Part shown: positions 1-35,480 of the stretch, piece by piece
How the letters are laid out: the number at the start of each line of letters is the position of its first letter
Numbering within the stretch: the first letter of the stretch is position 1
Origin: an uncultured Gammaproteobacteria bacterium
Lineage (GTDB): Bacteria; Patescibacteriota; Microgenomatia; UBA10105; UBA927
Assembly (NCBI GenBank): GCA_964533995.1
Contig: CAZHOQ010000002.1
Span: forward strand, 1 to 35,480
Reading direction: 5' to 3'
Length of the DNA: 35,480 nucleotides
The notes under the pieces: model-generated
Told to the model about the DNA's origin: nothing
Seen by the model: the letters and a program-made list of their open reading frames with translations, nothing else
Databases searched by the model: none
Position numbers and translations under genes: made by a program

Positions 1-7
1 CAATGCG

Positions 8-15000: not shown

Positions 15001-18000
15001 GCGGTTGCCAAATGGAGACGTTCAGGTTAGGATTCCGCCGACTGCGGAGGGGATAGAGGCCAAAGCTAATCCGCCGCTTGGAAAACGGATTATGGAGATG
15101 CTTGAACGGGGACCGTTTAGCCAGTCAAGCGGGATCGATGCGACACCGGCATGGTTGAAAAGCGTTTTGAATAGGATCGAAAACTCCATCCGTCTGTTTA
15201 GAATGTGGCGCGACCCGGTAGGGTATGGCAGGAGTCTTGCTGACTCCATGCGCGTTACCCTGCCTGCCGATCTTCTGAATAATCCCGATGCGACCATCGC
15301 CTTACGCAACCAGATGCGTCAGGACCTTGCCCAGGCATGGAACTGGATGTCGTTTGCCAGAAGCCGCGGATGGCTGACGACCGCACAGGAAGACGCGATT
15401 TATGATTACCTTTTCGGACAAATGTCCGAGCGGTACGGTGCGGACATGCGCACCAGGTATCCGGATATTTACGGAAGCCTCACGCTTACCCGGACGATGA
15501 CGGACGCGATGGAAGACGTATTCCGGTATCTTGCGGGCGAACGGACAAGAGCATACGGCGAAGGCAGGAATGAGCAGCAGCTGCCTGCACTCCTTACCGC
15601 CTGGCAGGCGTCGCGCCGCCGGCTGCTTACGCGCGGCATTCCCGTGCAGCCGTTGCCCCCGCAGTCCCGGACGGAAACCCTGCCGCATCCCTTTGGAGGG
15701 GACAGGGAAATAACCCTGACCTGGACTTCAAATTCCGTGCGTATCCAGACCGGGGCGTTTATCCGGGACGTTCCGCGGGGAGTGGATGAACAGCGTATTC
15801 CGCTCGAAACGGGACTGATTGCCGTCGTACTCGGCAACGGCGATGTTAGGGTCGAGGTTACGGCATATCCGCATATGGTACAAACGCCGGACGGAACGGT
15901 TCTGTTTTATACCGACATACAGGGCAACCTGTATGACCCGCAGGGAGGCGGTATCCGCAGGTCCGTTGCGGTAACCCCGGTCCGCAGCGGCGGCAACATC
16001 GCGTTCCAGTATGCCGTTACCCGGACAGACGACGGGTACGCGGTAACCCGCCCCCGGACGGTGCGGGTATCCGAAGGCATGACGGTCTCCCTTGCCGACG
16101 GCACAACGACCGTCATTGCGGAAGATGACTTCGTCCATATCAACCGCGGCATGAGAAGCGACATACTGGTTTATCCCGTGACACCCGTTGGTATCGAATA
16201 TCCGGCGCCTGACGAGAGCGGAAACGTGCGGCTCGATATCATCCGCGGAGAGACTGAACTGTCCGGCACGGTACCGGCTACTCCGGCAACGGAGACAATC
16301 GTCGTGCCGGAGGGCGTTACCGCAACGGGTAACGAAACGCTTGCCGTACAGGCAATCACCAGGCTCTCGCCGGAAACCATCGAGCAGGCGGCAGAGCCGT
16401 TTATTACGGTCCGCGACCAGCACGTGACACTATCGAGCGTCCGTCTCATCGGCAATACGCTTATCGGCGACGGCCGCATCGAGTACACCACCCGGGAAAA
16501 GATAGCACAATACGGCGCGCGTGCCATGCCGGTCCGGATGATGATCAATCTCACGCCGGAAGACGCGTATAGAATTTTCCGGAATCCGGACGGCGCGTAT
16601 GCGGAACTTCTTGCCCGGTACCGGCAGTCGACGGAGTATGTGGTTGCCGTACACGGCTATTTCGAGTCCGGCAAACAGTTCGAGTCCGCTGCAGACCAGG
16701 TTCTTACCGCATGGGGAACCAATGGAACGAGGCAGGTGATGATTGCCGTCACGCATTCCGGCGCTGAGGATACCTATGCAGACGCACCGGGATATACCGC
16801 GGAACGTCTCGTGGACCAGGTCGAAGATGCCGTTGAGTACTTTGGTACGCAATACAGGATTGCGGAACGCAATGATGCCCGGGTTACCTATATGGGTCAT
16901 TCGCTTGGCGGCGCGGTCGGCCTCCGGATTATCGGCCGGCACGGAAGGGAACAGGGGGGCATTTGGGGGAAGATCAAGTATCTTTTAGTCGCCCCGTACA
17001 CCGGGGACCGGCGGCAACTTACTCTCCTTAATGAATACCGCGTGATCCCCTCAAATCCGAATACGGGGATCCTGCGGTTACTCAATCATCCGGCATTTTT
17101 ACGCGTCCCATGGCTTCGCTCATACTTTATGTGGTGGTCGAAAACGTTTGGGATCGAGAATGCCTTATTCGATACACTGATGAGTGTCGAGGAGGTCCGT
17201 GACCCAGCGGTTGCCGTATCCAAGCGCATTGCCAGCACATCCCTGCATAACGCCCGGGTAGCAATCCGGGAAACCAACACGCTCGATACGATTCAGCCGA
17301 TAGAGGACGAGTCGATCCTCCGTGAGCTTGCCGGTCAGGACAGGATTGCCATCACCAATCCGGAAACGGATGATACGCTCGATTCCGCTGTCACCGATGC
17401 ATTGGTTGACCGAACGGGAGTGCGGCAGGTGACATACCATAAGAGCCATAACCCCAAACGCCTGGACTGGGCAGGGGAAGTACAGCCCGTCGTCCAACAT
17501 CTGTTCGGCAGGATTACGTTGCCCGCAAATCCCGCGCCACGGTATGTCAATCCCCGAGAGCCGAATTCCCATGACCTGTGGCAAATACTTCGCGACAGTA
17601 TCGTGAATTCCGTCCGGGACCGGTGGGACCGTTTCCGCAGGCAAGGGCGGTATGAGCAGCGAGCGGAGCTTACCAATGAACCGCGGATAACGAGGCCGTA
17701 TGCGCTTGAGCCGTTTAACCTGCCGCAGGAGCAGCTCGGACATATGAGTCTAAGCACGCGGGGTGATTATAAATTCTTCTTTTATACGATCGAGCAGAAC
17801 GGGGAACAGTTCATCGCATTCGAGATGCCGTACGAAGCGAAGTTCTCCGTGGAAAAGCAATATTTCCGGATTAATGGAGCCCCGTACACGCGGGGACTGG
17901 TGCGTTTGCGGCTTGGGGACCGGATCGAATCGTCATTCGGTAACGGCATCGTGAGTGTCGTCCGTGATCCGTCCCAACCGGGCGGGTACGCCCTCGGTAT

Positions 18001-21000
18001 CAGGAACGGGACGGGGATATTCGGCGGACGCGGATCGTTTGGCGTCGGGCTGGGAACAAGTGACGCGAATGGCAATTGGTTTTCGGATGTCGGGAATATC
18101 GCCGTACTCCCCGTCAACGACGGCACCGTACTCGCTGAGAGCCTTACGCAGTGGACCGACCGGTTAGACGCGGATTTTGATCCCGACCTCCTGCTGGTTG
18201 AGGGTGCCGAAGAGCCGTTCTATCTTGAGAGCGTCAGCGCCAACCCGTCATCACCCATGTATATACGCGCACTGCTCCGGGACGGGATCCGTAATCTGCT
18301 TGTCGACATCGACAACCAGCCGGTCGGTTATGTTACGAGGATCGGCGATGTCGTCATGGTTGAACTCCTGAAAGAAAAGGAAAACCAGGGAAATACGACC
18401 CGCCGTTTTGATCTCGTGATGGGCGAACCGATGCGGCTCGTGTCGGTCCGCGATGCTTCGGGCCAACAACAGACTGCGCCATGGTTCCGCTTGTTCTCGC
18501 GCATATTCGACCGAACCAACTCTGCTGAAATCAGTGGGAATGTGCCGGCGATTAAACCGTCTGCCGACACCCCGGTCCGGCAGCAGCGTTTCGACCGGCA
18601 GCATCCGGACATTCTGGCGCAATATTACCGGCGGAATCAGTTCCTGGATGAAGCGAAGCTCGTGCATACTGTCGTCGTACCCGTTGCGGCAGAACTTAAT
18701 AACGCCAATTTCCTTCGCATGTTGGCGTCGCTCAATACGTTGGATCCGAAAACCGACCCCGCAACATTCGAGATACTCGTAGTAGTCAACAACGAAGACT
18801 CCGAGGCGGGAGGACAGGCATATTTCATAGAAAATCAGCGTACCGTAAGAATCCTCCAAGCATACGGGGCCGCGCTCCTGGACAGCCAACGGATTTCTCC
18901 GGATGAGGCGGTTGCACGGTTGGCCCTTGCGTTAGCGCCATATAATCTGACTCCCGGGCAAGTTTCGCTGCTTTCTGATCTGCTTAGGAAAAAAATCCGT
19001 ATCTATGGGATAGACGCAAGTTCCGTCGGACAATCCATCACGCGAAACGAAACGGAATTCTCACCGGGAATCGCGAAAAATATCGGTACGCATATCGCAT
19101 ATGAACGCCTTGGACATTCCGCATCAAACGACACGCTGATAGATTACAAGGATGCGGATATCGCATTCCCGTCGGATTATTTTCTAACGGTCGGCCGACT
19201 GCTTCAAAGGAAGCCGGGAGCGGTGTATTTCGGGATACAAGTCGTCCCTGGCATCCTTCCTAATTTGACGAACGCCGTCCAGAATCCCAAGCAACGTCTG
19301 GCGATTGTTGCATCGTATGCGTCGGAAGCGCTCGGAGGATTTAAGGGGGCGACGAAATATTTCGATTTTTCCAATGGGGGCAGGATTCAATTCGGACGAC
19401 GGGGTTCCTACCAGGAGGGGCCACAGCTTGCGATGAGTCCGGAGGTTGCCCGCGCCCTCGGCGGATATCCGATATCCGGACGGTTCGGTGAAGATTTTAC
19501 GGCGGCGGCATGGGCGCGAGATGCCGCAACGATTGTCGAACAGTATCCTGGTGACCTCCCCGTACTTACCCAGGTGCCCGGAAAATACGACTCTACGGAT
19601 ATGTATGCCGAAAGACATCCAACGGCATCCGCAAACAAGGATCATAACCTGATTTCTGCTATTGCGCGGACATACCAGTCCTATTCCCAAAATACGGATT
19701 TTCAGCGTGCCCTTGAACGATATTGGCAGCAGGATGCTGAACGAGCATTGCATAACAGGCAAATTATTGAAGCGATAGCCCGGGTTGTCTGGATGGGCCA
19801 ACCGATCCAGACTCTCAGCGCGGAAATCCAGGAGGAAATTGCCAGGAATTCGTATCTCGTGGATTTTGTTCGCGATGTCCGTACCGTTCATTCGCCGAAT
19901 AGTCCGGAAGAATTCATGCGGATTATTGCGAAGGAATATCCGATTTTGTTCGGCACGATTCCGCAGGAGCCGGATTACGAAGAGTTGACTGGGGTATTGC
20001 GTGATGACACTTCATCCCGACTGATTAATCCCCGCGATTTCGTCCATGTCATCCGCGCGGCGTATGCGGCCGAAGCCGCAGCAAATGGCAGCAATGCCGT
20101 TATTCAGGCTTCGTCTCAAACCGCCGTCGATGGTCAGCCAGAGGACGTCGGTGAAGAAGTTGCGAAGAACTGGTACGGTAAGTTCGAAAATATCGCCTGT
20201 GGATTAGGGGCCGGGATAGTGAAGCCCGTTTATGCTCAAGGCCCGGGCGGGAGTCAGTCGGCAAGTGGTGTCTGTCAGGTCGCCAGGGCAGCCGGGACGT
20301 TTATTTGGAAGAAACCGTTGCGAGCGATTGAATTTTTCGTGCTGGATAACGTGCTTCGGCCAATCCTGAGCAGGCAGGCTCCGGCGAATAAACTGCAGAC
20401 ACTCGTAGTTGCCTACGGGGTCATCGGTGTGACACTGGGTTTGGTTTCCGTCGGATTACTCCTAAGTAGCTGGGTTGCACCTGTCGCCGGGGTTTTTGGA
20501 TTAGCTTTGACAATGATCGGGATACTTGGTTTTTGGGACATCATGGGTGTGAAAAAGTCGGCACTTTCCTATCTGTATCCCAATGCCATTCAGGTTGCCG
20601 GTAACGGGCATTTCCAGGATCGGGCAAATTGGATTCGTTATTACCAAAAACGGCTCGAGTCCGACCCGAGTTTAGCGGGGTACGTGCAGGATGCCACCAC
20701 TACCACTGCTATTTATGCTGCGTTGGAACGGTACGAGCAGGATCGGTTACGAAAAGAAATCGATGCATTTGAGGATACGAATCCGGTTGAATTCAAAGAT
20801 ATCCAGGCGCAGGCAGCACGGATTGCACCGGTGATTGGCCGATGGCGAACGTTATCATTTGCCGAACGTAATCGGATGATCGGCGAATCTATGAGCGCTG
20901 ATGATGCTCGGACGCTGGATTTCCTTGATCTCTATGGTCAGTTCCCAAATCATAGCATCCAGTTGCACGGTGATGCCGTGCTGCAAGCAGGGTTGATTCG

Positions 21001-24000
21001 GTATCATAATAACCAGTTAAGGGCTCGGGAGCAGATACTTCATGCAAACCAGTCCTATGGGCGCGTCGTGGCACATGCCGGATTCCAAGCAGCCGGGGCA
21101 CCCAACGGAACGTCCCGTATGTATAAGGACGGAACCATTCTAGTCGTGTATTTTGATCCTGAAGAGGCCGCATATTATTACAAACATCCCGACCAAGGCG
21201 GACAGTTCGAGTTTACGAATCAACACATTCTGACAGTCAACATCGCTGTATCCGGTGGGGCAGGTGAGGTGCAGAGCGTTACGAATCATGAGTATGCCCA
21301 TTCACAAAGTAAGAATAAGAGTGTGGCCAAGCTGTTTACTTTTGTATTTCTTTTCAAGACATTCGATGAGGGGGCGACAAGCGTATGGCAACATCTTCTT
21401 GATATCGTGCAGGGTCGAACACCAGAGGAATCCAGTAAATATTTGTCGTATTCGGCGGAACGAACAGCTATGGATAGGTTGTTCCGGTGGCAGCGCCTCC
21501 TTGGTGTACCAGAGCAGGCTGCAGTCCGAAATATATTAGCCATTCAGCAGGATGAAAATATCGGCGCAGGATTCCCTGCCTTTTGGCAGCGGGGTGCGGC
21601 ATGGGGAATCGTGGCGCTGTCGCGTATTACTGATTTATTTAATATCTTTGGAGCGCCCCCATTCCATAAAACCGCGTTAGGGCAGGCCGTGGCACGGTAT
21701 GGCACTGAAATCCGTAATCAAGCCTTTGAACAAGGAACGGAAACTCCGACAATCGCACCGGGCGTACAACAATACTTTATTACCGATCAGCCGGGGGATA
21801 TACTCGAATCCGGCGCAAAAGCAATTACCGACCGTGCGGAAGATCTCTTGTGTGGGGGGAATTCGGGATTCGTGAGAAAAGCATATGCGCAGAGTCCTGG
21901 CGGTAGCGGGTCGGCGAGCGGCGTCTGCCAGGTCGCCAGGGCAGCCGGGACGTTTATTTGGAAGAAACCCATCCGGCAGATTGCGGAATGGACAATCCAG
22001 CGTCCGCAGGCCAGGCCAACATTGTCAACAGACCCATCGATCTTGCTTCAGAACCTTCCTGAACGGATACAGGCCGTATTGCGCGAGGCGGATGCGGCGG
22101 CCGCACGGAAGCCAAAGACGAAGCTGGAAAAAGAGATTACGGTAAGCCAGCTTAACGACGCATCGAAGCGGTACAGGAATCAGCGGGAGCTCGTCAATAA
22201 TTATGCGATCTTCATATCACTGTACCCGGAAATCATAAAAAGCACGGTGTTCACCGGTACCCAGGGGACGGCCGACCTTGAGGTGCGGCTACAGGATGCA
22301 TATAACGCGCACGGCATGTTCATCATGGCCGGGACGCTTACCCGGTATCTGGCGATCAAGGATGCCGCGGAGGCATGGCTCGCTACTCATGGAACCGCCA
22401 TGCCGGCCGATGAGCTCCAGAAGGAAATCGCCAAACAGTTTTCCGCGGATATCAACTATGAAGAGATTGCCGAGGAGTATATCGCGCGCATGCCGGGTGA
22501 GGCCGGGCGGAACAGGAAACTGGTTGCAAACGTCAGGGACTATCTCCGGCGCAAAATCAATTCGCTTCCCAAGCAGGGGAGTCTTACTGAGACGGGGACT
22601 CTGGATATCGAAGGGTTAGAGATTTCCGAAGCGGAACTTCTTCAGGCCGTCGTCGTCCGCGCGAATGGCAGCAGGCTTGGCGGAAACAGGACAATTGATC
22701 AGATCGACGACCACGAGCTGTATCTTATTGCCGCAAGTATTATCCTCAGCAGATACGAGGTTGAGGCGACCTTCGGTTCCTATGCGATATATAAACGGCT
22801 TCTTCTGGAGTCGGATGCACATTTTGACAGTAAGGTAGAGGAGCTTACCGGTATTAAGGTTCCCTTCGGGGAAGGGCTCGTGACCTTACCGTACACGGTG
22901 CTTGACGACGCACTGCAATACATAAAACCGGAGGGTTCAAGAACTGATGCCGCTGTCTTTGACAAAGTAACCCGCGGTACGTTTATTAGGACCGACATGT
23001 TTGCGCCCATCGGGTGGCTTCTCCATATCCGTGCCCACGAGCGGATCCACCAGAAGCAGACCCAAAAAACCGGCGGCGTCTCGGCGCAGGACGGGTCCTA
23101 TATCGAGGCATTCACCGATATGCTGGCAAGCGCCGTGTACCCGCATGAGTCCAGCTATTCGTCGGCGGTTAACAGGATTGCCCGTGCGCACCAGCTTCTG
23201 TTAGCCGCGGCTGGTAATCCTGAAGTACGGGTCAAAGAGTTGTGGAAGAGTATGGCGCTGACGGCATTTACCGGGAACCATTACGGGTATGACGAATCGA
23301 CCGGGGAAAAGATTCCCTACTACGGTACGCTCATGGAGGAGGAATTCGGTATCGGCGTATTCATACAGTGGATGAGTGAGTCGAGCTTCATTTTCGATAA
23401 CGGAAGGAACACCGACGCATGGTTTTATTATCCGCAGTATTTTTCCGAAAACGACCGGCTCGCCTATGATGCGCAAAGCGGCCTCTATCAAGTGGCAGCT
23501 ATTCTCCTTAACCGAAGCGCGCTGAAACCGAAGGAAGTGCGCCGGGCAAATCTTCCGTTCACTCCGGCATGGTTTACGGCCATAGGGTCCGAGACGATGG
23601 GGAATCAGTATGCTAGGAGATTCCAGCGCCTTGCCGAACTGATGCACGTATATGGAAGATACCGGACTGAACCTTCCTACGCACCCAACGAGAGTATCCG
23701 GCAGCGGGCGTTGCTGTCGCTCAAAATACTTTTCATTCATGTGTTCGTGAGCGATTACCGGTGGCTTGATAGTGACGAGTCCGTAGATGCCTATCTGCAG
23801 CGGACATATCAGCAGCGGTATCTGGACTCCGTAGTTGTGCCCCAGGGAACGGTGCCGGCAGTTGGTGCCCGCGTATTCGTGACGTACACGGATGATCAGG
23901 GTCAGCCGCATGAAAACGAGGCAGCCGTACTGGCACGCCGTTTTGAGGAGGGTGTGCCCGTTCCCGTGTGGGTCGTAATTTCCGAATCAGGGTACGAGGA

Positions 24001-27000
24001 TATCGGGCTCGTGCCTGCCGATAATCTGAGTCCGCCGGCACAGCAGTCATCCCCGGGCATCTTCCCGTTTATTAACAATCCGATTCAGGGAGTTATCCGT
24101 GCCATCTTCCCCCAAAGCGCACCGGAAAGTCCTGATCGGAAATCTGGTGCCGATACAAATACCGAGCAGCCGAAGGTTGTGAATTCCAATGAATCAACAA
24201 GGGTCACTACACAGCTTGAGCCGATCCGGGAGTTTCTGATTGCCCATCCCCAAATCAGGCAGATGGGACTGGCGGGCCAATTAGATGCGCTGATTCTTGA
24301 AGGACTTGCTACATTGACGTCTCCGGATGATCAGTACCGGTTTATACGGGAGGCAAATACGCTGTTACAGCCGCGTCTTAGCGATTATCTTGATCAGATT
24401 TACCTGCGGGACATGAAAGTTGACCTACGGAAAGAAACCGAACGACTGCGCTATCTGGTTATGGAGGAACGGTTTTTGGCTTTGGGGTTTGACTTTCATG
24501 CCGCATCATCCCTGTTTATTTACCTGCGGACGCCGGGGACGAGCGGACGGGATCTGGTGAGCGTTGTTCTGGAGGATGATGCAGAGACCGGGATTCCGCA
24601 ATTATACGTATCCGATTATCGGGGTACGACGCGCAAGTTAACGCTATTTACCGAGTATCTGGCATCGATGAAAGTAGGGGATATGCTGCAAGAAAGTTCC
24701 GGTATAGGCGGAGGCAGCATGTTCGCATACCAGAAGCAAACGGACGGTTCATTTGCAAAAGCCCGGTTGGTTGCCGCCCAGGGTTATGACACATTTACGG
24801 CGGAAGTGGTCCGCTCCGTATCGCTGTCAGCAAGCAAGTTCTGGCAAGCACTCGATGCTTCGGTACAGGCTAGGGATGCTGCTACGCTTATTGCGGCGTT
24901 GAAGACGGATCCGCAGATTGCCGAACTGTTAACACGGCAATATGAAGGCAATTCCGTCGAGGAGCGATTGCGAAAAGCTTTTCAGTCACACACGTCCGAT
25001 CCGACTCAACATTTGATCGTTACTCCTCGGGATGTGGCATTATTGTTGGTTTTTGCGGCATTTCCGCCATCGGAACGGGAGTATGTGACCGCTGTTGCCG
25101 TATCCCTTGTCAGTAATGGTGAGGTTCCGGATGGCGTAGGCCGTTTGGCACTGCTTGTCGCGTCAGGTGACGTATTCCGGTACTTCACATCCGATGATGT
25201 GGCTTCTACGGATCTGGTAAGAAAAATTGTTGATGTTGCCGCAGGATTCGGACAGAGCGAACTGGACGTCAGGGACGTGCTTACGGATGTATATCAGGGT
25301 CGATATGGCTTGCCGTTTGATACCAAAAAAGTACTTGCGCTGAATAAGGCAATCCACGCGGTTAGGGCACACACAACGAATACGGAACAGATAAGTTCCG
25401 CATTCCCGTCGTTATTCCAGCGGGTCGCCATGGTCCGGGACAATATCATACACACACCGTATCCTGCGCATCGGATTGACCCCAAAACCGGATATCCCGT
25501 ATTACCCGACGGCACTGCGGCAAGCGATCATGCCGTTATTTCCTCCTCGGATCGTGCATCGGAAGAAGATATCGAGAAGGCGAGAAAAGTGTTGGAGAAG
25601 ATTCGTCCGGACGGGACATTCATCCTGGGCCACAGTCCGACACCAGGAGACGCGTCCCAGTCCCAGCTTCTTGGCCAGGAGAAGGCGGTGCAGCTGCTCG
25701 TTAATTTTATCGTTTTCGGAATATGGCCGCAGTACGAAACACCGGAGCTTTCCCGGTATGAATCCGCTCCGTGGATCGGCACATTTAACTTGGTGGATCC
25801 GCACAACGTATCTGCCGGCCGGTATTTCGAAAACGGAGCAGCCGTCATCATCGATCCGCGTGCGGAGCATCCGTACAATGCAATAGATGAGCAGGAAACA
25901 TCAGTATATGTTCCGCCTCAATATCTTCTCTATATCGTGCCCACATGGGCGCATGGGGATCAATTGCTCCGCGAGGCCATTAAATTACGACGCCTGAACC
26001 CCGATGAGGCAAAAGATCTGGATAGCAGGATATTCACCATCCAGGATGTTATTGACGGAACATTCGAACGCTACATAAGTAGGAACGAACCGGCGAGCGA
26101 TGTAGAGCAGTTTGCCCAGGATCGCCTAGACGAGGCGGAAAACAACTGTAATGGCAACCAGACTTCGATACCAACGTTTACCGTTCATGCCGCAGGCGGC
26201 AAGGTCTGCAGTATCGCGGACCGGCTGCTTGCCAACCTGAAAGGGGCGGGGATGAACGGGGATATGCCCAACAGAACCGTCTGGAACCGTGTACGGAATT
26301 TCCTTGGATTCGATGTGAACGGGCGTCCGTCAACGCGCCGCCAGTATCCCTTGTGGATTCCCGCGTTCTTCAATTTCATCCAATACAAGGTAAATGGCGA
26401 ACCGTTCATGGTGTACCTTGACCGGGAATTTGCCAAATCTCCGGGAAAGGCGTGGCTTACCGCAAGCTGGCATCTTGCCAGGGCAGTTTTCGTATGGGCC
26501 GATACGACGCTGTTGTTCACACCGCGGAACGACATTCGCACCATGATGGTAACCATGCAAAATCCAATTGCGATGTTTGTCATGCCCATTCTGGAAGAAC
26601 TGGGGTACAGAAGTAACGCGACGCTGCAGAGAGTCCAAACCTTCCTGGGGCGTTTCGGAGTTCACTTAAGCGGATTCCAGATGCGCCGTCTTTCTGATGT
26701 CGTGTTTGTTTTGTACCATATACCCAATTACATCATCGCTCCGCAGCTTATCCCGTTCCAGCTCGTGTCGAAATTCTTCGGTGCGGCATTCATGCAGAAG
26801 CTCGCAAACGAACGGGGACTGGGCACGTCGATAGCATTCCATACGTTTTTTAACACGATGGTTGCCGCGATGGAGGCGTTAACCGTTTCCCCGAATGGGG
26901 CAGTCGCTGCCCAGTCACCTTCCTACGCCTGGGCGCCATTCGGCGTCATCACCGCGGTCCAGGTTGCGCTAGGCACGAAGGAGCTGATAGACGATTACCG

Positions 27001-30000
27001 GATTGACCGGACCCTGCGGGGTCTCAGAGCGGGAGAAGAGAGGACGCAAGCTCAAGTTTGGATACCGCGTCTTCTTGCAGTGCCAGCTACTAACGGATAC
27101 AAATATCTTTCCGGTCTCGAAATGTCCTATGAAGTGCACCGGAAGGGAAGCGGCAACGAAAGTGATGTGGTGTCTGCCGTTATTCAGGATATCGTAGATA
27201 ATGCACCCCGGAATTTATCTTCTGAGCTAATCCGGGACAGGATCGAAAACGGCTTGAAACATCTTTCGGACGTATATGGGGTTGCCCAAGATTCTTATCT
27301 TGAGGCGGTTGATGCTTGGGTAGAACAGTACCTAGAGAACGTAATTACCGCTGCACGGCAAACGCAGGAGACTTGGTGGGGGCGTATTTCCCGACTTATC
27401 AGTGATTTGTTTAGACGAGCAAGCAGTAGTCGATTCCCTCACGAAGCGGACGTCCAGGACCGCCTTGACGATGCGGAAAGCAACTGTAGCGGCAACCAGA
27501 CCTGGATACCCACGTTCACCGTTCATGCCGCCGGCGGCAAAGTCTGCAGCATCGTGGACCGGCTGCTTACTTCCCTGAAACATGATGTGGGAATGACCGG
27601 TGACATGCCGATCCGGACGATTATCGGGACGGGCGCATCTGTTCTAGGCGGGGGATCGGGCGATGCGGCGGACGGACCAATCGAACTGTACGGCACTGCG
27701 GTATCCCCCTTGTCCAGAAACGACCGCGAGCAATTATGGGCAAGCGGCAGGGATTTGCATTCGGACCGCGGCCGCGTATACGAAATTCCCGGCGGACGGG
27801 TGTACCAGGAAAAAGAGGTGTATTACCATTTCGCATCGAAGGATGCGCTTATCCGGCAGCTCCGGTTTCTTGTCCTCCTGACCCAGAAGGGATTCTTCCC
27901 TCCGGATACGACATGGTTCTATTACCGGATGGACAACGGGGAATATTCCATTGCGGCGAACATGCCGTATCTTCAGAAGACGGCAGGCATCCCCAGGCCG
28001 GACCGGCGAACCTCTTCCGAAGCGATCACCGGGCCCATGCAGCGCGTATTTTCTTCGTTCCGGATCGGAGTCAACCAAAGCGACCCGGACTACCAGGAAC
28101 AACTAGTCTGGGCGGCCATGATCGCGGCCGACGCGTTAAAGTACGACAACTGGGCAGACGATGGGAAACAGATCTACCTTATAGACATCGAAGGTGTTAC
28201 GAACCGCCCGCAGGCAGTCGATGCGGTACTGGATCATTTGGATCCGTCAGCAGAGACGGGAAATATTTGGAGTTGGTTGCGCGGATTGATTGATTTAATA
28301 CGTAATGGCGGTATCGGCGGCGGGCCGGCACCGGTTGGGGAAGGGGACGGGGAAGCGACGATACGCCTGCCGGTCACCACATCCGCCGAGCAGGTGCGAC
28401 TTAAAAGCGACGGGGCGGCGTGGCAAACGGCCAGGGAAATCCTGCTTGTTCCAATACTCCCTGTCAGATTATTCATATATTATTTCAATGGCATTGACGT
28501 GCCGACACTTGTTGGTCGGATGGACAATCTCCCCTCCGTGCTTGAATGGCTCCGGACGATTGAGGCACTCCCGATTCTTGATAAATACACCGCATCATTC
28601 GGGAAACGTCAGGCAATGGAAGAAATCTTCGATAACCTGTTAGCTAATCCGGACCGGGCGGCAATTATCCGGCATCTTCCAGATTTGCTTAACAGCGGGA
28701 AAGCACTCGGCATGTCCGAGGAGCAATTGACGGAACTTATGATCGTTACGACCGAAATGCCCGTATCGATCATGGTTAAGACTGCGGGGCTTCTGCCTAC
28801 GTTGAGGAAGTGGCATGGCGAGGATCCGTATGGCAGCTTCCTCGACAAATATAACCAAACCGGCGTCATATATGCGTTTCTCCACGTGCAGAATCCATTG
28901 CCGGTGCTGCCGTATATCGACGGATGGGTAGAGATTTTGGAAAAAGACGAGCGGCTGGACGGATTCCTGAAGACACAGGCGCTCGCGTCGCTTATCACCG
29001 CTCCCGACCCATCGCGCATACCGCCGGCGGATCTTCCTCAATATATCAATCAAGTCGTGGAGCTCCGGGGGATAGCCGAACTAACCGAAGAAGACCTCCA
29101 CTTCGAGAGTGATTACTTCGAATACGTATTCAGCAGGACGGATCCCAAGCGTACATACGAATCCGTCCGGTTTGTGTTCTATGATCCGGAGACGCTTGCC
29201 ATCATCAATACGGACCTAACCCGGCGGCAGGTTATCGGGCTTATGCGGTACGGGCTCGGCGGTTCACTTACGAGCAATCACACACTGTTCCGTCCCCTTG
29301 AGGAAATGCTGCTTGATGCAGGACTTCAGTATTCAGACATCTCACTGGTGATCGGCAGGAATCTGGATCGGTCTGCCGTACTTCCCGCGGTAGTCGCCGA
29401 CGAGCGGATTACCGGGCTCATCCGCGGACTGCGGTATCTGGGTTTTCCATCCAAGCTCAAGGGGGAAATCATCAGAAATGCCATATCCAAATTTTTGGGC
29501 GAATCTACGGAGGCGGAAAAAACAAGTATTGCAACCGAACAGAATATCGCAGCTCTGAACTCACTCTGGAAACTCCAAAACGATCCGGCGCTTATTACGG
29601 CAGGTCACTTTGACACGCTCACTGCTGAGTATGGAGAGACATTTGTCCGTGAGGGGCTGTATGCACTGGGGACGTATGTTGCCGAGGTATACGACGCCTA
29701 TACCCGCTGGATCAGGAATTATCCCGATCCTGCGAAACGGGATGAGGCGATCGGGGTGATCAAGCTTTTCAAGGAACTCGGTATCAGTATCGATAACAAT
29801 AGGATTTACGGATTTACGCATTTGCCGGAGGTCGTCGTGGTAGCGGTAGAGGCGATGCCGGACACGGATAGGGAAACGAAGACGAGGTTGCTTGTCGAAT
29901 TTTCCGCATACCGGGCGCGTGGTGATTCGCTCAAGGAAGAGGCGCTCCTAAAGATTATCCGTGAAGGCAGGTTTACGGAATTTGCGAGCGACTATCAAAA

Positions 30001-33000
30001 GCTCCGGATTCTTGAAGACCGGGATGTGATCGCGATGAAAGATGCGGCGACGCTCAATAGCCTCTATGCGAGACAACGGGAGCGCCTTCAGGAAGTCGTC
30101 GGAAGCATGTTGGAGACGCGTTATTCGGAAAAGTACGTCGCCGATCTTGTTGAGGGACTTGTAACCCTGTGTGCCGTCGTGTGTGCCAGTCAGGAAATGG
30201 TTGAATTTCCGGTGGGCAACGCGACCTTTGCTGTTCCATTGGCGTTCGGAGAAGAGCTTGCCGAACAAGTGACTGACCTTTCGGAGTTTGCCAAAAGGCT
30301 TTTTGTTTACATCATTGCCGATTCCGTCGTTAAGGAGAATCCGTACGCGATTGTTGACCTTGGAGTGCTCCAAATCGGTCAGACGGTCGATAAGGTTGGC
30401 AACAGAAGAAACGCGCTAGATTTAAATGAAACATATGCCGCGGTTCAGCGGAACATTGAGGCATCTACAGCCGTTTGGAAACAGGCTCAGGAGCTTCGGG
30501 ACGAAGAAGCGGGAAGGCCGGTATTCATCATCGCAAACGAACGGACCGCCCCGGCGGATGTGGCGGCGGAAGCGTTCTCGCCGGAAACGGCCAAAGCCCA
30601 GGGGATCGTGCAGGACGTGCCGTATGACGATATTTTCCCGTGGATGCTGGAGAATAAGGCGCTTATTGATCGGTTGTACGACCAGTACCAGAAAGGTCAG
30701 CCCCTTACCGGATCCATACCCGCGGATATCGTCCAGATGCTCGGGCTGAACTCCGGCGGCAGGATCATACCCATTTACCGCCTCAAAATCGCATCCTCAG
30801 ACGGGAATATCGGCAAGGATTCGGATGGATTTCCGGCAGTGCTGACGTTCATGAAACTTGCTTCGCTTCTAAACGGCAAGGTCCTGTTCGTTGACGAATC
30901 CACGAGAGTCGCACCCCGATCGATTGTTTCCGTATACGGTTCGCTTGACCGGCGCCAGAAGGAGCTCGGCGGCGTCCGGGTCCGGATGGTTGGGAAATTG
31001 CATAATGCCGTATGGGATACGGGCGCGAAATTTACTGATGCTAACCCTGGCCGCCCTCATATGGATGTCACCTTCCTTGATCCTTGGACCTATCAGGATA
31101 AATCCATTACGGACGACAGTTTCGGATTCGTACCGGAAGTGGAAGGAACCGGCTATGTGAAGATTGTCGTTCCGGCACAGCTTTCGCTTTCCGTACAGGT
31201 CGGCAAAACCATGCAGGATACCTGGAAGCGGATGATTGCCGGTCAGGTTGCACAGCGCATGGGCTGGGAGCAGGCGCCGGAACATGGCGCAGAAAACGCT
31301 GAGCAGGCCAAATTGACGAAAGCATTCGCCAGGCCGTATAAGGCCGTAAGCCTGGATTTTGATGGGACGTCCAACAACGAAACGATTCAGCGTGTAAGAA
31401 CGCTCCTTACCGAAGGCACAATGGTCATATTCAACACCGCCCGTTCGACCGTTGAACATCCGGAGTATAACGGAGGCATTGCGATCATATCCGACCAGCT
31501 GTCCGACTTGCCGCAGGAAGCGCTCGATTTATTGTGGTTCTCGACGGAGGACGGAGGCTACATCGCACCGTTTACGGCGCTCGAATCACCGATATTCACG
31601 GCACCTATGGAGCCTGCGGCAGAGGTGAAGATTCGCTCTTATATCCGGTCTTCCGTCCGTATCACCCGCGGCATATACGACGAACGCGTGTCGATTGTCT
31701 TGCGGTTTAATCATGGAAAGGAGACCGAGGCCGCATTAGCACAACTTACGAAATTCGTCACCCAAAATAATTTACCATTATTGGTAGTTTCCCGAAGCCG
31801 TCATGGTATTGCCATACGGTCCGATAAAGCCAGCAAGGCAAATATTTTTCCGCTTCTTGAGGAAGAAGGTGTTGCGGTGGACGATGTTCTAAAGGTAGGG
31901 GACAGTGCGGAAGGCAACGATAGGGATCAGCTTATCGGACGCGGTGCGTTCAATGTCGGCCCGAATCGGGGAGGGACCCAGGATACTATTTACTGGGGTG
32001 ACCGGGAGATCGGAACCAACGACATACTTGACCGCGCGGCGTTCGTCCCTGCCCGGGAAGGTACGGACAAGAGAACTCAGCCGGAAAGCAAGGATTCCGT
32101 GCTGGGTATCGATACGGATTGTTTTTCCGCAAATCCGTTTATACCGAAAGTATACGCTGCAGACGGATCCGGGCATACCTGCAGCCCGTTTTTCCGGGCT
32201 CCATGGAAGGTGGTATTCGAGAATGCCGATGAGGCATTCGATACGGAAAAGCGGGATAGGCTTATGAAGCGGGTAGGGGAAGAGGTTGGAGGGGTGTTCG
32301 GTACGATGGCAGACCGGTCTATCGGTCTTGCGAGAAAGTTTATAAAACTCGAATTACTGACAAGGCTCGGGTATGCCCTGTTTGGCAAGTACGGGGGCAA
32401 CTCACAGCTCCCGCCTCCGGATAAGTTCGTACTTGGCATGACCGGTGTCGGATGCTGGTTTAATAACTGCCAGGAGGGATGCACCACTGGCTTGCAATGC
32501 AGCGAAACGACCGGCTGTTGTACGGGCATCAAAAATTATAAGGACACCATATGCTCCTCGGACGGCAATGCGGAGATGGACCGGCATATGACGGATGATT
32601 TGTTCCAGCCGGATGAGGTCAGGCTCTGCGATGAGCGTGGTTGTAAGGACGGCAAATGCCAAGGATACAAAACAGATACGGACGGCCTGCCCGCATGCTC
32701 GTCCTTGCCGGTGGCATACAACATGTCGGACTTTTCGGAATGGAGTTATTTACCGGTAACCGGTTGTGTCAATGATGACGGGACGCTGGGGTATAAAATG
32801 GGTGTTCCGACGGACGAATTTAAGGATTACTCCTGCTCACTTGACGGCACCAAAGTGCTTAATACGGAAGGTGAGGTAGTGCATACATGCGGAAGCGGCG
32901 TGACCTGCGCGAAATTTGCTGATTCGGTAGACTGTTTTCTCCCTTCCTCGATCCAGGCGCTCGAAATGTGCAGCCCGACGGTGCGACTTGCAAGCGGGTT

Positions 33001-34009: not shown

Positions 34010-34028
34010 GAAATCTTTTGTGCCCGAA

Positions 34029-34814
34029 TCAGTAGTAGAATTCGCTGTCCTGAGCGAAGGACATGAGATACGCTTCATCCTCAGTTAGCTGCGTTTGGTA
34101 TGCCTGAAGGGCGTTCCGTTTGGTTTCCCGTTCCTTGTCCGTCAGAGGGATCTCCACCATATCCGGGATTTTTTCTTCCGAATGGATGACATACCTCCGG
34201 ACTTGGAGCGGTGGCGAGGAATTCCGTGCGGCATCCAGGAGCACCTGATGGGTGATTTGGTGGTCCGGCGCGGTATCGCCGAGGCCGGGGACGTAGATAA
34301 GGGAAGGACGGTGTTGGATAAGCAGGTTTTTTATACCGGCAACGAGTGACGCCCGGGTGTACGGTCGGCCATCAGGTGTCCTTGAGCGCTTGGTAAACGG
34401 GTTGATAAACGGGGTTTCCGTAGCATACGTTTCGGGAAGCCAGTAATCCGGGTAACCCAAAAACGTCACGTCTCGGCGGGACAAGCCAAGCACCTTCAGC
34501 GCGCGTATTTCCTCTTCCCTTCGGACGTTTCCGAACCGGACGAAATCATCGGGGATGAGCTCGGATTCCGGTTTTTTGGTAATCCGGGCGGCGGCTGTGG
34601 CGTACCCGTCACCGTCCGTCAAATTAACGACATGGACGGAATTGCCATTTTGTTTTGCCTGTTGGATGATACCCGCGCAACAGAGGACCGCATCGTCCGG
34701 GTGGGGGGAGAGAATGAGGATATCCGTGCGGGACGGCGCCGTGTTCCGGGTGGCAAGCGCCAGGATCACAAGAAGTATTGCCGATACTACCGCGAAAAAC
34801 CTATGGTATATCAC
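34029..34814 (-). CDS. PIG-L / LmbE-family N-acetylglucosaminyl deacetylase with N-terminal signal anchor
   Basis: 261-aa ORF, GTG start at 34814, TGA stop at 34029-34031. Family motifs are LILSPHPDDAVLCCAG (PHPDD zinc/catalytic motif) and APDHQITHQV (HxxH-type second zinc motif). The N-terminal hydrophobic segment is FFAVVSAILLVILALA. It starts 9 nt after the stop of the upstream - strand gene. Confidence 0.85.
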   Translation of the reverse strand: MIYHRFFAVVSAILLVILALATRNTAPSRTDILILSPHPDDAVLCCAGIIQQAKQNGNSVHVVNLTDGDGYATAAARITKKPESELIPDDFVRFGNVRREEEIRALKVLGLSRRDVTFLGYPDYWLPETYATETPFINPFTKRSRTPDGRPYTRASLVAGIKNLLIQHRPSLIYVPGLGDTAPDHQITHQVLLDAARNSSPPLQVRRYVIHSEEKIPDMVEIPLTDKERETKRNALQAYQTQLTEDEAYLMSFAQDSEFYY

Positions 34815-34823
34815 AGCGGGTGT

Positions 34824-35480
34824 TTAGTGCTTTCGTCGTATGATATACCCCAGGGAAATAAGGGTCAAAAGGGACAGGACAAGCAGGAATGATTTGAGTG
34901 CTGATGGTTCGTAGGAGAATTCAACGGTGTGCGTCCCGGCCTCGTCGAGTTTCACCGCGGTGAAGAAGGGGAATACCGCAAACGCATGGGCCTTTTTCCC
35001 ATCGATTTTTGCCCTCCAGGAAGGATGGAATGATTGCCTGAGAACGACGACACACTCGGTGCAATTGGAAGGAACATCGACGGAAGCCGTGAATATCATG
35101 TCGCCCCGGTTCTTCTGGGAGGTTACGACCAGGGATTTTATGGTATTTGCGTCTTGCACGGGGCTGACGTAACGGGGTATCCCGGCGAATATGTTGTGGA
35201 TGCTTCCGTCGGGCACCCGGTAGGTCACTTCATCCAGCATGCGGAAGTTGGGGAGACCCGTTTGTTTGGGGTAGTCCGTGTCGAAGGTCAGCTCCGGGAA
35301 GAGTTGCTGTTTTGGGGCATCGGAGTGCATCCAGAGTCTCATCAGCGAACGGTAATCGGTTTTTGCGGTGCTTACGGTTGCCGGGCGCGTACCCGTCGTG
35401 ACATATCCGCCGGTTGCCACTTCGTATAGTTTCCATGTCTTTCCTGACTCTGCAAGCTTCCAGAACGGCTGTATGTGTTT
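34824..35480 (-). CDS. 3' portion of a YfhO-like / GT-C-type membrane protein gene (5' end outside the window)
   Basis: The frame is open from the window edge (35480) to the TAA at 34824-34826; the GTG at 35420 in the ORF track is therefore not necessarily the start. The C-terminal pattern VVLRQSFHPSWRAKIDGKKAHAFAVFPFFTAVKLDEAGTHTVEFSYEPSALKSFLLVLSLLTLISLG matches the conserved tail I recall for YfhO-type membrane proteins (y.pGWkayvDGk...i...n..f.gv.v..G.H.v.f.Y.p), plus a final TM helix. Confidence 0.65.
   Translation of the reverse strand, partial: KHIQPFWKLAESGKTWKLYEVATGGYVTTGTRPATVSTAKTDYRSLMRLWMHSDAPKQQLFPELTFDTDYPKQTGLPNFRMLDEVTYRVPDGSIHNIFAGIPRYVSPVQDANTIKSLVVTSQKNRGDMIFTASVDVPSNCTECVVVLRQSFHPSWRAKIDGKKAHAFAVFPFFTAVKLDEAGTHTVEFSYEPSALKSFLLVLSLLTLISLGYIIRRKH

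Follow-up and report, generated by a model that had tools for sequence, protein, structure and literature searches.

Cysteine-bounded V-Y-A loops as candidate processing junctions in a rare family of giant mosaic bacterial proteins

Introduction

On which side of the membrane does a bacterial protein of more than eleven thousand residues reside, and does it remain in one piece? This question is raised by a stretch of 35,480 nucleotides from an uncultured bacterium (assembly GCA_964533995.1, contig CAZHOQ010000002.1, positions 1 to 35,480 of the forward strand), referred to as the window throughout this study. Nearly the whole window is filled by one giant open reading frame (ORF) of ~34 kb, which codes for 11,333 amino acids (aa). 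No stop codon interrupts its frame back to the first base, so that the N-terminus is missing and the gene must begin upstream of the window; when metagenomes were scanned with the N-terminal 700 aa in search of this start, no relative was found.

The original prediction for this locus, made by reading the sequence, described a paradox of sidedness. Domains that would need cytosolic substrates or cofactors (GGDEF-like, pyridoxal-phosphate (PLP)-dependent, GT2, kinase-like and HAD domains) were proposed to share one polypeptide with features of exported proteins, namely a near-total avoidance of unpaired cysteines, short Cys-bounded loops and a C-terminal region with 30 cysteines. This was reconciled by a polytoxin model, in which the protein is exported or displayed on the surface and nicked within disulfide-closed loops, and in which its Cys-free enzyme blocks are released by reduction inside another cell. 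Here we report that the sidedness paradox extends to a whole family of giant proteins. The best explanation for the window is that it encodes at least 11,333 C-terminal residues of a giant, mosaic protein of the cell envelope, which belongs to a rare family with a fixed C-terminal module. More tentatively, we read this protein as a polyprotein of largely extracytoplasmic modules, whose loops would be cut after a conserved V-Y-A motif and whose products would stay tethered by disulfides.

Paired cysteines in the giant protein

The window sequence is not a one-off assembly product, since Logan contigs from two sequencing runs were 100% identical to nt 24029-35480 and nt 33731-35278. These contigs, together with the recurrence of its modules in other giant proteins, led us to reject an assembly artefact. 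Nor is the protein a simple repeat protein, as both a protein self-comparison and a DNA repeat search uncovered few internal duplications.

The giant protein contains 50 cysteines in total. Only 16 of these reside in aa 1-10,790 (0.15%), and all 16 are arranged in eight pairs with a spacing of 4-25 residues (57/63, 4339/4357, 6731/6756, 7282/7307, 8714/8734, 9160/9180, 10055/10059 and 10705/10725). Eight such pairs were obtained in none of 200,000 random placements of 16 cysteines, and the analytic estimate for this arrangement arising by chance is ~3e-12. The remaining cysteines are concentrated near the C-terminus, with 30 in the block aa 10816-11127 and 4 more in the last 75 aa. The avoidance of unpaired cysteines noticed in the original prediction is thus real, as is the 30-Cys region, which ends exactly at the predicted nt 33390.

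A low upstream Cys content (0.10-0.23%) was also observed in most of the large relatives, which are designated below by P or L numbers. P0032 has zero cysteines across about 3,700 aa, and the higher content of P0009 (0.67%) goes along with an N-terminal Cys-rich region of its own. Cys loops with the V-Y-A motif described in the next section were present in all large relatives; that is, the homologues keep the Cys pairs. In P0009, aa 1-1000 hold 44 cysteines in 22 close pairs around a hydrophobic stretch of ~60 aa, and about 5,900 residues with a single Cys follow, giving this protein Cys-rich ends and a Cys-free middle.

A conserved V-Y-A motif within the Cys-bounded loops

The short Cys-bounded loops of the original prediction turned out to have more in common than their length. 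Six of the eight Cys pairs share one loop design, C-x12-V-Y-A-[AQ]-(G/S-rich)-C (Table 1), and the motif recurs in relatives. We aligned 29 loops from 17 proteins (the window protein and its relatives) and anchored them on the Ala, defined as position -1, which was invariant (29/29). Position -3 was Val in 26 loops and Ala in 3, and position -2 was Tyr in 24, Phe in 3 and His in 2. Position +1 was variable (A, Q, V, I, D, G or S) but in no loop Pro. Aliphatic residues occupied positions -6 and -7, and positions -4 and -5 were rich in K, R and P. The first Cys is located 12-16 residues ahead of the Ala (mode 13), and the second Cys 5-16 residues past it, after a stretch rich in G and S. The motif is strongly concentrated in the loops: [VAFT][YFH]A[AQ] occurs 12 times in the 10,790 aa upstream of the Cys-rich block, and 6 of these occurrences fall within the 134 loop residues.

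Type I signal peptidases follow a -3/-1 rule, with small residues at -1 and -3 and no Pro at +1, and their substrates carry a helix breaker at -4 to -6. All 29 aligned loops comply with the rule for the cleavage region, and the Pro content of -4 and -5 fits the helix breaker. The likeness extends to signal peptides at the N-termini of P0006 and P0001, two family members that start at a real Met. The N-terminus of P0006 reads MHTRTKLYYIVLGFTVGIIFGSLAGLSIPKVYA followed by QDPIQC and is a canonical signal peptide ending in IPKVYA, the very hexamer of window loop 6. In P0001, the N-terminus contains C-LVILFVGWLFVRPALIVHAAV-C, with the same V-Y-A motif at the signal-peptide end. A basic n-region with a hydrophobic core of ~10-20 residues was found at these two N-termini only. 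In the AlphaFold2 model loop 6 is disordered (pLDDT ~34), and it is therefore predicted to be flexible.

Two other kinds of processing site were considered for the loops and rejected. A lipoprotein site (lipobox) at the second Cys is a misfit at residues -1 to -3, and a rhomboid-type site is a misfit at the P4 and P2' positions. The flanks of the relatives contain too few ordinary secreted proteins to judge whether V-Y-A is the usual cleavage region of this lineage.

V-Y-A junctions that have no cysteines were also seen. In P0032 (aa 6618-6690) GISVSVYA is followed by FDQSFVWFM at the point where the homology with the window protein ends, and in P0039 (aa 5053-5120) AGGSLYA is followed by the same FDQSFVWFM at a module boundary.

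Module exchange at the loops

The family proved to be rare. When 1.84 billion representative proteins were scanned in full by HMMER for the last 634 aa, only 44 proteins matched, always at their extreme C-terminus and including giants of 4,454-7,694 aa. Genome and metagenome scans added 18 further loci. The records of the relatives are labelled Candidatus Beckwithbacteria or uncultured Gammaproteobacteria.

Everything upstream of the C-terminal unit is mosaic: modules of the window protein recur in other giants in a changed order (Table 1). Three homology breakpoints fall 3-13 residues from loops (breakpoint/first loop Cys at aa 4334/4339, 8701/8714 and 10702/10705). A swap of a whole cassette is apparent from L011, a locus on a 144-kb JGI contig (Ga0172374_1000017). 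From aa 10730 to the end its protein is 90.6% identical to that of the window, and its DNA is 82% identical through the downstream genes; upstream of the last loop, however, the two are unrelated. L011 joins the C-terminal module by a type-B loop (74% identical to window loop 4), whereas the window does so by a type-C loop. Within the window, loops 2 to 5 are encoded by two direct repeats, D1 and D2, each of which brackets a module. These modules look as if they had been inserted into a loop, or could be excised from it. The loop-encoding repeats and the cassette swap at a loop therefore suggest that the loops are not only protein junctions but likely recombination junctions as well. The family clearly illustrates how close relatives exchange modules, and do so exactly at the junction. 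The relatives also carry modules beyond the set of the window, namely SecA-like, VanY, SGNH and GNAT-like modules; the VanY match (a cell-wall peptidase) is found in P0021 (E 1.7e-8).

One locus displays a disrupted junction. In L006 (a 47.7-kb Logan contig of SRR22388055; nt 1-10100) an ORF of 9,531 aa ends in DALRCAVAP, four residues past a Cys that possibly opens a loop. It is followed by a mobile island with AbiEii, Fic-MerR and AAA_14-DUF4143 genes, and then by the 4,454-aa P0006, which begins with a signal peptide ending in IPKVYAQDPIQC plus the second half of a loop. The arrangement in L006 suggests that an island was inserted at a junction and split the giant gene.

A conserved C-terminal module with a zincin-type domain

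The conserved C-terminal unit consists, in this order, of the last V-Y-A loop, a helix, the 30-Cys block and a zincin-type metallopeptidase domain. In the module taken as aa 10700-11333, which includes the loop pair, 33 of the 36 cysteines are kept in at least 11 of 13 full-length relatives. A structural model of this module (pLDDT 76.9) gave no match at E<=0.001 when searched with Foldseek against the Protein Data Bank (PDB), and its weak matches were beta-propeller-like with TM-scores below 0.1. Zinc-finger-type clusters were rejected for the 30-Cys block, as no CxxC/His patterns were seen on reading the sequence.

The zincin domain has 4 conserved cysteines, and the two His and the Glu of its HExxH motif as well as the downstream Glu are invariant in 18 sequences. 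The window copy gave no Pfam or NCBIfam match. The copy in P0001 came close to Pfam Peptidase_M90 (25.1 bits against a cut-off of 26.2), and a profile of the domain matched the HExxH region of an M1 aminopeptidase (E 0.0028). Like Peptidase M90 (MtfA-like) and gluzincins, the domain combines HExxH with a downstream Glu, but the M90 score stays below the cut-off, and the domain here has its 4 conserved cysteines and is fused to a 30-Cys domain that is without a structural match in the PDB.

In L010 (nt 1-15976; GCA_964533345.1), the 1,991-aa P0016 and the end of the ORF upstream of it (at least 3,626 aa) overlap by 59 nt. Both probably derive from one giant gene of this family that has been frameshifted or split. 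The Cys-rich block of P0016 is shortened and is not preceded by a V-Y-A loop.

Sidedness, processing and competing explanations

Membrane segments were judged by Kyte-Doolittle hydropathy alone (19-residue means). By this measure the transmembrane (TM) content of the 11,333 aa amounts to one strong hairpin and a moderately hydrophobic CPBP core. This agrees with the original prediction, which had placed a hairpin at nt 20393-20550 and had seen no convincing TM segment between the HAD domain and the Cys-rich region: the hairpin is real, and the best helix between the HAD-like region and the Cys-rich block of the window protein scores 0.73 and bears 5 charges. In the window, L003 and L011 alike, the helix before the Cys-rich block is amphipathic (0.7-0.9, 5-6 charges).

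The N-termini of three relatives bear on the side at which the upstream modules reside. In P0006 a canonical signal peptide is directly followed by GGDEF-like modules. P0039 and L004 carry N-in/C-out anchors with basic N-flanks upstream of modules that are homologous to window modules, and in P0039 the anchor is followed by a Pro/Thr-rich stalk. No strong TM segment was found in P0039 or L004 before the loops, the homologues of window modules or, for L004, the C-terminal module. Together with the Cys pattern, the conservation of the 30-Cys block and the VanY module of P0021, these N-termini lend moderate support to export or surface display, the step with which the polytoxin model begins and which we infer from them. 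Nicking within the loops is, as far as sequence can tell, the best-supported step of that model, being suggested by the V-Y-A motif, its likeness to signal-peptide ends, the position of the loops at module boundaries and the predicted disorder of the loop.

The reading that we tentatively favour builds on these two steps. Most of the giant chain would lie outside the cytoplasmic membrane, and each V-Y-A loop would be an exposed processing junction, cut after the Ala by a protease with the specificity of a type I signal peptidase. Candidates for this protease are the signal peptidase itself, the C-terminal zincin and the CPBP module. The flanking Cys pair would form a disulfide that keeps the cut pieces tethered, and the DNA encoding the loop would double as a recombination junction for module swaps. 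With its loops cut and its pieces tethered in this manner, the giant would act as a polyprotein of extracytoplasmic modules. A bolder form of this proposal, to which we assign little probability, regards the V-Y-A Cys loop as a previously undescribed kind of bacterial polyprotein junction, an internal cleavage site of the signal-peptidase type (or for the zincin) closed by a disulfide. One exported giant chain would be cut there into many enzymes, which would be held together until they reach a reducing compartment, and modules could be swapped at the repeats. Were the bacterium epibiotic or predatory and its genome small, several effectors could be delivered at once in this manner, by a route that would be new.

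Several observations weigh against an exported and processed polyprotein. The hairpin of the window has 3 and 2 Lys/Arg on its flanks and an uncharged turn, so that the positive-inside rule places the flanks inside. In about half of the relatives (P0001, P0002, L005, P0009, P0021 and P0032) the helix before the Cys-rich block is TM-like (1.4-2.2), so that the membrane would lie between the loop and the Cys-rich block. P0032, which is 61% identical to the window protein over 2,080 aa, contains a divergent SecA_DEAD module at aa ~2680-3410 (41 bits, E 1.7e-10), accompanied by weaker SecA_SW and P-loop_SecA matches; this module and the GTP-needing GGDEF modules suggest that at least part of such proteins is cytoplasmic. 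The internal loops have ~7 mildly hydrophobic residues before V-Y-A and are acidic rather than basic upstream; with no hydrophobic core as long as that of a signal peptide, they fall outside the canonical substrates of signal peptidase. The Cys-less junctions of P0032 and P0039 imply that V-Y-A is possible at junctions without flanking cysteines, and P0006, P0032 and P0021 have a few unpaired cysteines. Finally, the start of the window protein itself lies upstream of the window.

The charges of the hairpin, the TM-like helix in half of the relatives and the SecA-like ATPase of P0032, as well as the nucleotide- and cofactor-dependent types of module, would fit a giant that is mostly cytoplasmic and tethered to the membrane by the hairpin and the CPBP module, with only the Cys-rich/zincin module outside, behind the helix that follows the last loop. 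Published giants are described as multi-pass proteins with embedded SecA_DEAD and GGDEF domains. In such a giant the V-Y-A loops would serve as flexible linkers or as targets of a protease acting in the cytoplasm or within the membrane, with their cysteines free of disulfide bonds. We consider this rather unlikely. It leaves without a reason the 5-10-fold Cys depletion and the strict pairing over thousands of residues and in many relatives, and it sits badly with the amphipathic helix of the window, L003 and L011, the signal peptide directly ahead of the GGDEF-like modules of P0006 and the anchors of P0039 and L004, which have no strong TM segment ahead of the loops. Moreover, the loop motif resembles the cleavage region of signal peptides, and these are cut on the outside of the membrane. 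Another possibility is that the protein is exported, for example as an adhesin or a scaffold for envelope remodelling, and stays uncut. Its loops would be disulfide-stapled hinges and recombination junctions, V-Y-A would be a structural strand motif, and the likeness to signal-peptidase sites would be a relic of once-separate secreted proteins. This would account for the conservation of V/Y at -3/-2 far beyond the need of signal peptidase, and it is in line with the loop-encoding repeats around modules, the cassette swaps at loops, the relatives whose giant is divided at a junction into separate ORFs, the downstream one opening with a signal peptide, and the synteny with envelope-glycan genes. 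We nevertheless regard it as improbable, because the loop is modelled as disordered and not as a defined hairpin, the variable G/S-rich segment after V-Y-A resembles an exposed linker, and the invariant zincin never comes without an attached loop.

The polytoxin model shares all of the support for export and loop processing with our preferred reading of a tethered polyprotein, and adds the release of Cys-free blocks by reduction in a host or prey cell. The repertoire of modules is effector-like (alpha/beta-hydrolases, a nucleotide-cyclase fold, several zincins and, in relatives, VanY, SGNH and GNAT-like modules), its shuffled mosaic is reminiscent of the effector region of MARTX toxins, and the hydrophobic helical hairpin could insert into a membrane. 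The record of one relative bears the label Candidatus Beckwithbacteria, whose members are thought to live attached to other cells, and it has been proposed in the literature that ultra-small predatory bacteria use giant proteins to attack prey envelopes. On the other hand, no receptor-binding or translocation module was recognised, no module matches a known toxin family, and both MARTX repeats and a C80 cysteine protease domain are lacking. The flanks examined contain neither an immunity gene nor a secretion system but envelope-glycan, toxin-antitoxin and AAA-DUF4143 genes, and the conserved end is C-terminal with the variable part upstream, the reverse of polymorphic toxins. Furthermore, the relatives have a GC content of 36-46%, as compared to 55% for the window. 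Release by reduction inside another cell thus found no support, the probability of the complete polytoxin scenario is small in our estimation, and the delivery of toxins is speculation; as an interpretation of the locus the model is partly supported.

Relation to known systems

The closest described kind of gene is that of the giant multi-domain genes reported by West-Roberts et al. 2023 (bioRxiv 10.1101/2023.11.21.568195). These giants contain GGDEF domains, divergent SecA_DEAD domains and peptidases suspected of self-cutting, for which C39 and S8 peptidases were proposed, and many TM segments, beta-helices and dockerins were stressed. According to the same preprint, it is an open question whether they act as one chain or as many products, and missing cleavage points block their dissection. 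Our family resembles them in size (>10,000 aa), in being mostly unannotatable, in sparse TM segments and in GGDEF domains; SecA_DEAD occurs here in the relative P0032. No SecA-like module was found in the 11,333 aa of the window protein (no Walker A motif, no Pfam match), although the missing N-terminus could hold one. C39 and S8 peptidases, beta-helices, dockerins and many TM segments were not seen in the window protein either, which, with one hairpin and a CPBP core, differs from giants with numerous TM regions. The published giants were associated with Omnitrophota and with neighbouring genes for type II secretion and carbohydrate import; such neighbours were not found here in ~10 kb on one side, and the records of the relatives carry other labels. 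The paper does not speak of cysteine, it uses the word disulfide once, in a title of its reference list, and it describes neither the junction motif nor a Cys-rich plus zincin C-terminal module. Neither the V-Y-A Cys-loop junction nor the Cys-rich plus zincin module seems to have been described before. For giants of this kind the V-Y-A junction is a concrete candidate cleavage point, being short, conserved, placed at boundaries and flanked by cysteines, and the loops provide a sequence-defined way of splitting giants into modules.

In AB toxins such as diphtheria toxin, botulinum neurotoxin, Pseudomonas exotoxin A and the Shiga and cholera A chains, a disulfide-closed loop is nicked. The present loops resemble this principle: each is short and Cys-bounded, would be exposed and carries a motif like a protease site, and if it were cut the chains would stay linked until reduction. 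AB toxins have one loop, located between a catalytic part and a binding or translocation part, with a furin- or trypsin-like cut at basic residues, whereas there are at least six V-Y-A loops here. In addition, a receptor-binding or translocation part was not recognised by Pfam, NCBIfam, PDB sequence or Foldseek searches, although divergent versions are possible. Should cleavage and disulfide tethering prove real, a bacterial polyprotein of many modules would be built on the same principle as AB toxins. MARTX toxins are secreted by a type I system, are flanked at either end by glycine-rich repeats and contain, between their effectors, a C80 cysteine protease that is activated by InsP6 and cleaves after Leu. 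The window protein is likewise a very large mosaic polypeptide that draws on a recombining set of modules, including alpha/beta-hydrolase and nucleotide-cyclase-type modules, but Peptidase_C80 (Pfam, whole protein), glycine-rich repeats (protein self-comparison and DNA repeat search of the part in the window) and, in the flanks, type I secretion genes were all missing. In the structural polyproteins of Flaviviridae, signal peptidase cuts internal sites, each after a genuine transmembrane signal sequence. Here, too, sites that follow the -3/-1 rule lie between functional units of one translation product, yet most loops offer just ~7 mildly hydrophobic residues before V-Y-A and are closed by cysteines.

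Polymorphic toxins, in the summary of Zhang et al. 2012 given in bioRxiv 10.1101/2025.01.14.632903, have a conserved N-terminal trafficking part, a variable C-terminal toxin and an immunity gene. As far as that summary goes, the similarities are a modular build, a releasing peptidase of the zincin type and the shuffling of cassettes. Measured by the same summary, the family differs in that the C-terminal 630 aa are conserved and the upstream part is variable, and in that an adjacent immunity gene, RHS or filamentous-haemagglutinin repeats and a recognised trafficking domain are lacking here. In a 2025 preprint, giant proteins of ultra-small predatory bacteria are treated as effector batteries.

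Enzyme-like modules of the upstream region

The domain calls of the original prediction fared unequally (positions in Table 1). The GGDEF-like call is weakly backed by the GGDEY motif and by the homologous module of P0006, which at 25.6 bits passes the Pfam cut-off for PF00990 (23.8 bits); the window copy scores 17-18 bits and has several weak NCBIfam diguanylate-cyclase matches. For the PLP-like module, the HSGSK motif gives motif-level support, and the sole family match, PvdN (a periplasmic PLP protein), has an E of 0.014; nothing beyond these speaks for the call. Its homologous region in P0039 is aa 3557-4038.

A first alpha/beta-hydrolase-like module with a GQSTG motif is located at aa 3931-4272, inside the block shared with P0032. 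The second has a homologue in P0012, and its Pfam matches to DUF676 and Abhydrolase_6 are below the cut-off. These two modules are one of the few internal duplications at the protein level, which are 24-28% identical (nt 11798-12823 / 16421-17473). The others are a helical segment of ~100 aa (nt 3107-3409 / 15299-15610) and a GGDEF-like sub-domain (nt 4343-4735 / 7829-8224).

Two further modules carry HExxH-like motifs. The HEYAH module gave no Pfam or NCBIfam family match, and the C-terminal part of the HERIH module, from aa 7776, is common to P0012. The CPBP core, resembling Rce1-like intramembrane proteases, has complete EExxxR (EELGYR, aa 8863), FxxxH (FVLYH, aa 8900) and HxxxN (HTFFN, aa 8945) motifs. 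Its Pfam score falls just short of the cut-off (PF02517; 21.0 versus 22.4 bits), its helices are moderately hydrophobic (0.9-1.33), and no sequence relatives of the region were found in a database of 5.8 billion clusters. The HAD call, too, has weak support. Motifs I-IV are present and NCBIfam gives weak, mutually consistent HAD-IIB matches far below the cut-offs (YcsE-related phosphatase, E 2.7e-4; phosphoglycolate phosphatase, E 0.017; Cof subfamily, E 0.12), but there is no Pfam match. The top Foldseek match of a single-sequence AlphaFold2 model was the HAD nucleotidase ISN1, which is a hint only since the model is poor (pLDDT 41.8).

The predicted GT2 and kinase-like domains gained no support from any search that covered them; here the original prediction, largely right in what it observed, over-read the sequence. 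Both regions were without a Pfam match at E<=5 and without any NCBIfam match, and the search of the 5.8 billion clusters returned nothing for the GT2-like region and aa 9180-10700. PDB sequence searches that covered the GT2-like region and aa 9503-11333, and not the kinase-like region, gave no match. A phmmer comparison with PDB sequences using three queries, covering aa 1-10000 and 9503-11333, gave none below E 0.05. In the modules that are supported the catalytic motifs are intact, and these modules are therefore not obviously dead scaffolds. Two checks named in the original prediction, on dead enzyme domains and on homologues that lack the Cys pairs, thus left its model standing.

Table 1. 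Positions of the features of the window, in order along the forward strand. Coordinates are given in nucleotides of the window and in residues of the giant protein, with identities to relatives where a segment is shared.
Feature	Position (nt)	Position (aa)	Strand	Remarks
Giant ORF, 11,333 aa plus stop	8-34009		+	ORF call; no stop in frame back to base 1
Cys pair CADASSC, not of the V-Y-A type	176-196	57-63		near window start
Double GGDEF-like module	3659-5218	1218-1737	+	GGDEY at aa 1337-1341; 25-37% identity to P0032, P0021, L004, P0006
Possible PLP-enzyme-like module	5264-6658	1753-2217	+	HSGSK at aa 2046-2050; 33% identity to P0039
Block of about 2,040 aa	6899-13009	2298-4334	+	61% identity to P0032
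Segment shared with P0039		4316-5067		40% identity
V-Y-A loop 1	13022-13078	4339-4357	+	CGGGAGIIRKVFAQDSVFC; homologous loop in P0039
Segment shared with P0012		5466-6100		37% identity
Second alpha/beta-hydrolase-like module	16421-17473	5472-5822	+	GHSLG; duplicate of aa 3931-4272
V-Y-A loop 2, type A	20198-20275	6731-6756	+	CGLGAGIVKPVYAQGPGGSQSASGVC; in repeat D2
Direct repeat D2, 100 nt	20231-20330 / 21884-21983			81% identical; encodes loops 2 and 3; brackets hairpin/HEYAH module
Hydrophobic helical hairpin	20396-20548	6797-6847	+	Kyte-Doolittle 2.23 and 1.85
HEYAH motif	21287-21301	7094-7098	+	in module between loops 2 and 3; motif only
V-Y-A loop 3, type A	21851-21928	7282-7307	+	CGGNSGFVRKAYAQSPGGSGSASGVC; in repeat D2
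HERIH module	22052-24031	7349-8008	+	HERIH at aa 7677-7681; 38% identity to L011
Segment shared with P0012		7776-8089		55% identity
Module shared with P0039	24188-26110	8061-8701	+	61% identity
Direct repeat D1, 127 nt	26116-26242 / 27454-27580			86% identical; encodes loops 4 and 5; brackets CPBP module
V-Y-A loop 4, type B	26147-26209	8714-8734	+	CNGNQTSIPTFTVHAAGGKVC; in repeat D1
CPBP / Rce1-like intramembrane protease core	26567-26860	8854-8951	+	EELGYR, FVLYH, HTFFN
V-Y-A loop 5, type B	27485-27547	9160-9180	+	CSGNQTWIPTFTVHAAGGKVC; in repeat D1
Cys pair CAVVC, not of the V-Y-A type	30170-30184	10055-10059		within hydrophobic helix
HAD-IIB-like phosphatase module	31340-31942	~10445-10645	+	DFDGT, FNTARS, KASK region, GDSAEGND (motifs I-IV)
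V-Y-A loop 6, type C	32120-32182	10705-10725	+	CFSANPFIPKVYAADGSGHTC; first element of conserved C-terminal module
Long helix	32309-32392	10768-10795	+	amphipathic here; between loop 6 and Cys-rich block
30-Cys block, beta-strand-rich	32453-33390	10816-11127	+	pLDDT mostly 80-95
Zincin-type metallopeptidase domain	33395-34006	11130-11333	+	HEFFH at aa 11208-11212; Glu of GEDFAD at aa 11279
PIG-L family deacetylase, convergent	34029-34814		-	outside giant protein
YfhO-like membrane protein, end only, convergent	34824-35420		-	outside giant protein

Flanking genes

The flanks that could be reached extend up to 10 kb on the downstream side, the upstream side being the giant gene itself. No secretion system or immunity gene was found in them, so that the secretion machinery which the original prediction proposed to look for was not seen in the reachable neighbourhood. 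Genes for PIG-L and a YfhO-like protein follow the giant gene both in the window and in L011 (L011 nt 10650-15643). A membrane protein with an NPCBM domain is encoded downstream in L011, in L003 (nt 12667-16756; with an additional GT87 match) and in L007 (nt 13848-15782), and in L011 genes for a HAD hydrolase and a dTDP-sugar epimerase come after it. This partly conserved synteny suggests a link with the synthesis of envelope glycans. Toxin-antitoxin and AAA-DUF4143 genes are also present in the flanks of relatives.

In L004 a pair of small genes on the opposite strand (nt 10934-11713), recognised by motif as HEPN-like (RDKLIHH) and minimal nucleotidyltransferase (GSLARG...DID) genes, is located between the stop codon that ends the giant gene and a second copy of the last ~20 codons, which is degenerate and ends in RDTIFEGREYLPEGGCPK and a stop. 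This arrangement suggests an insertion that was accompanied by a duplication of the 3' end of the giant gene.

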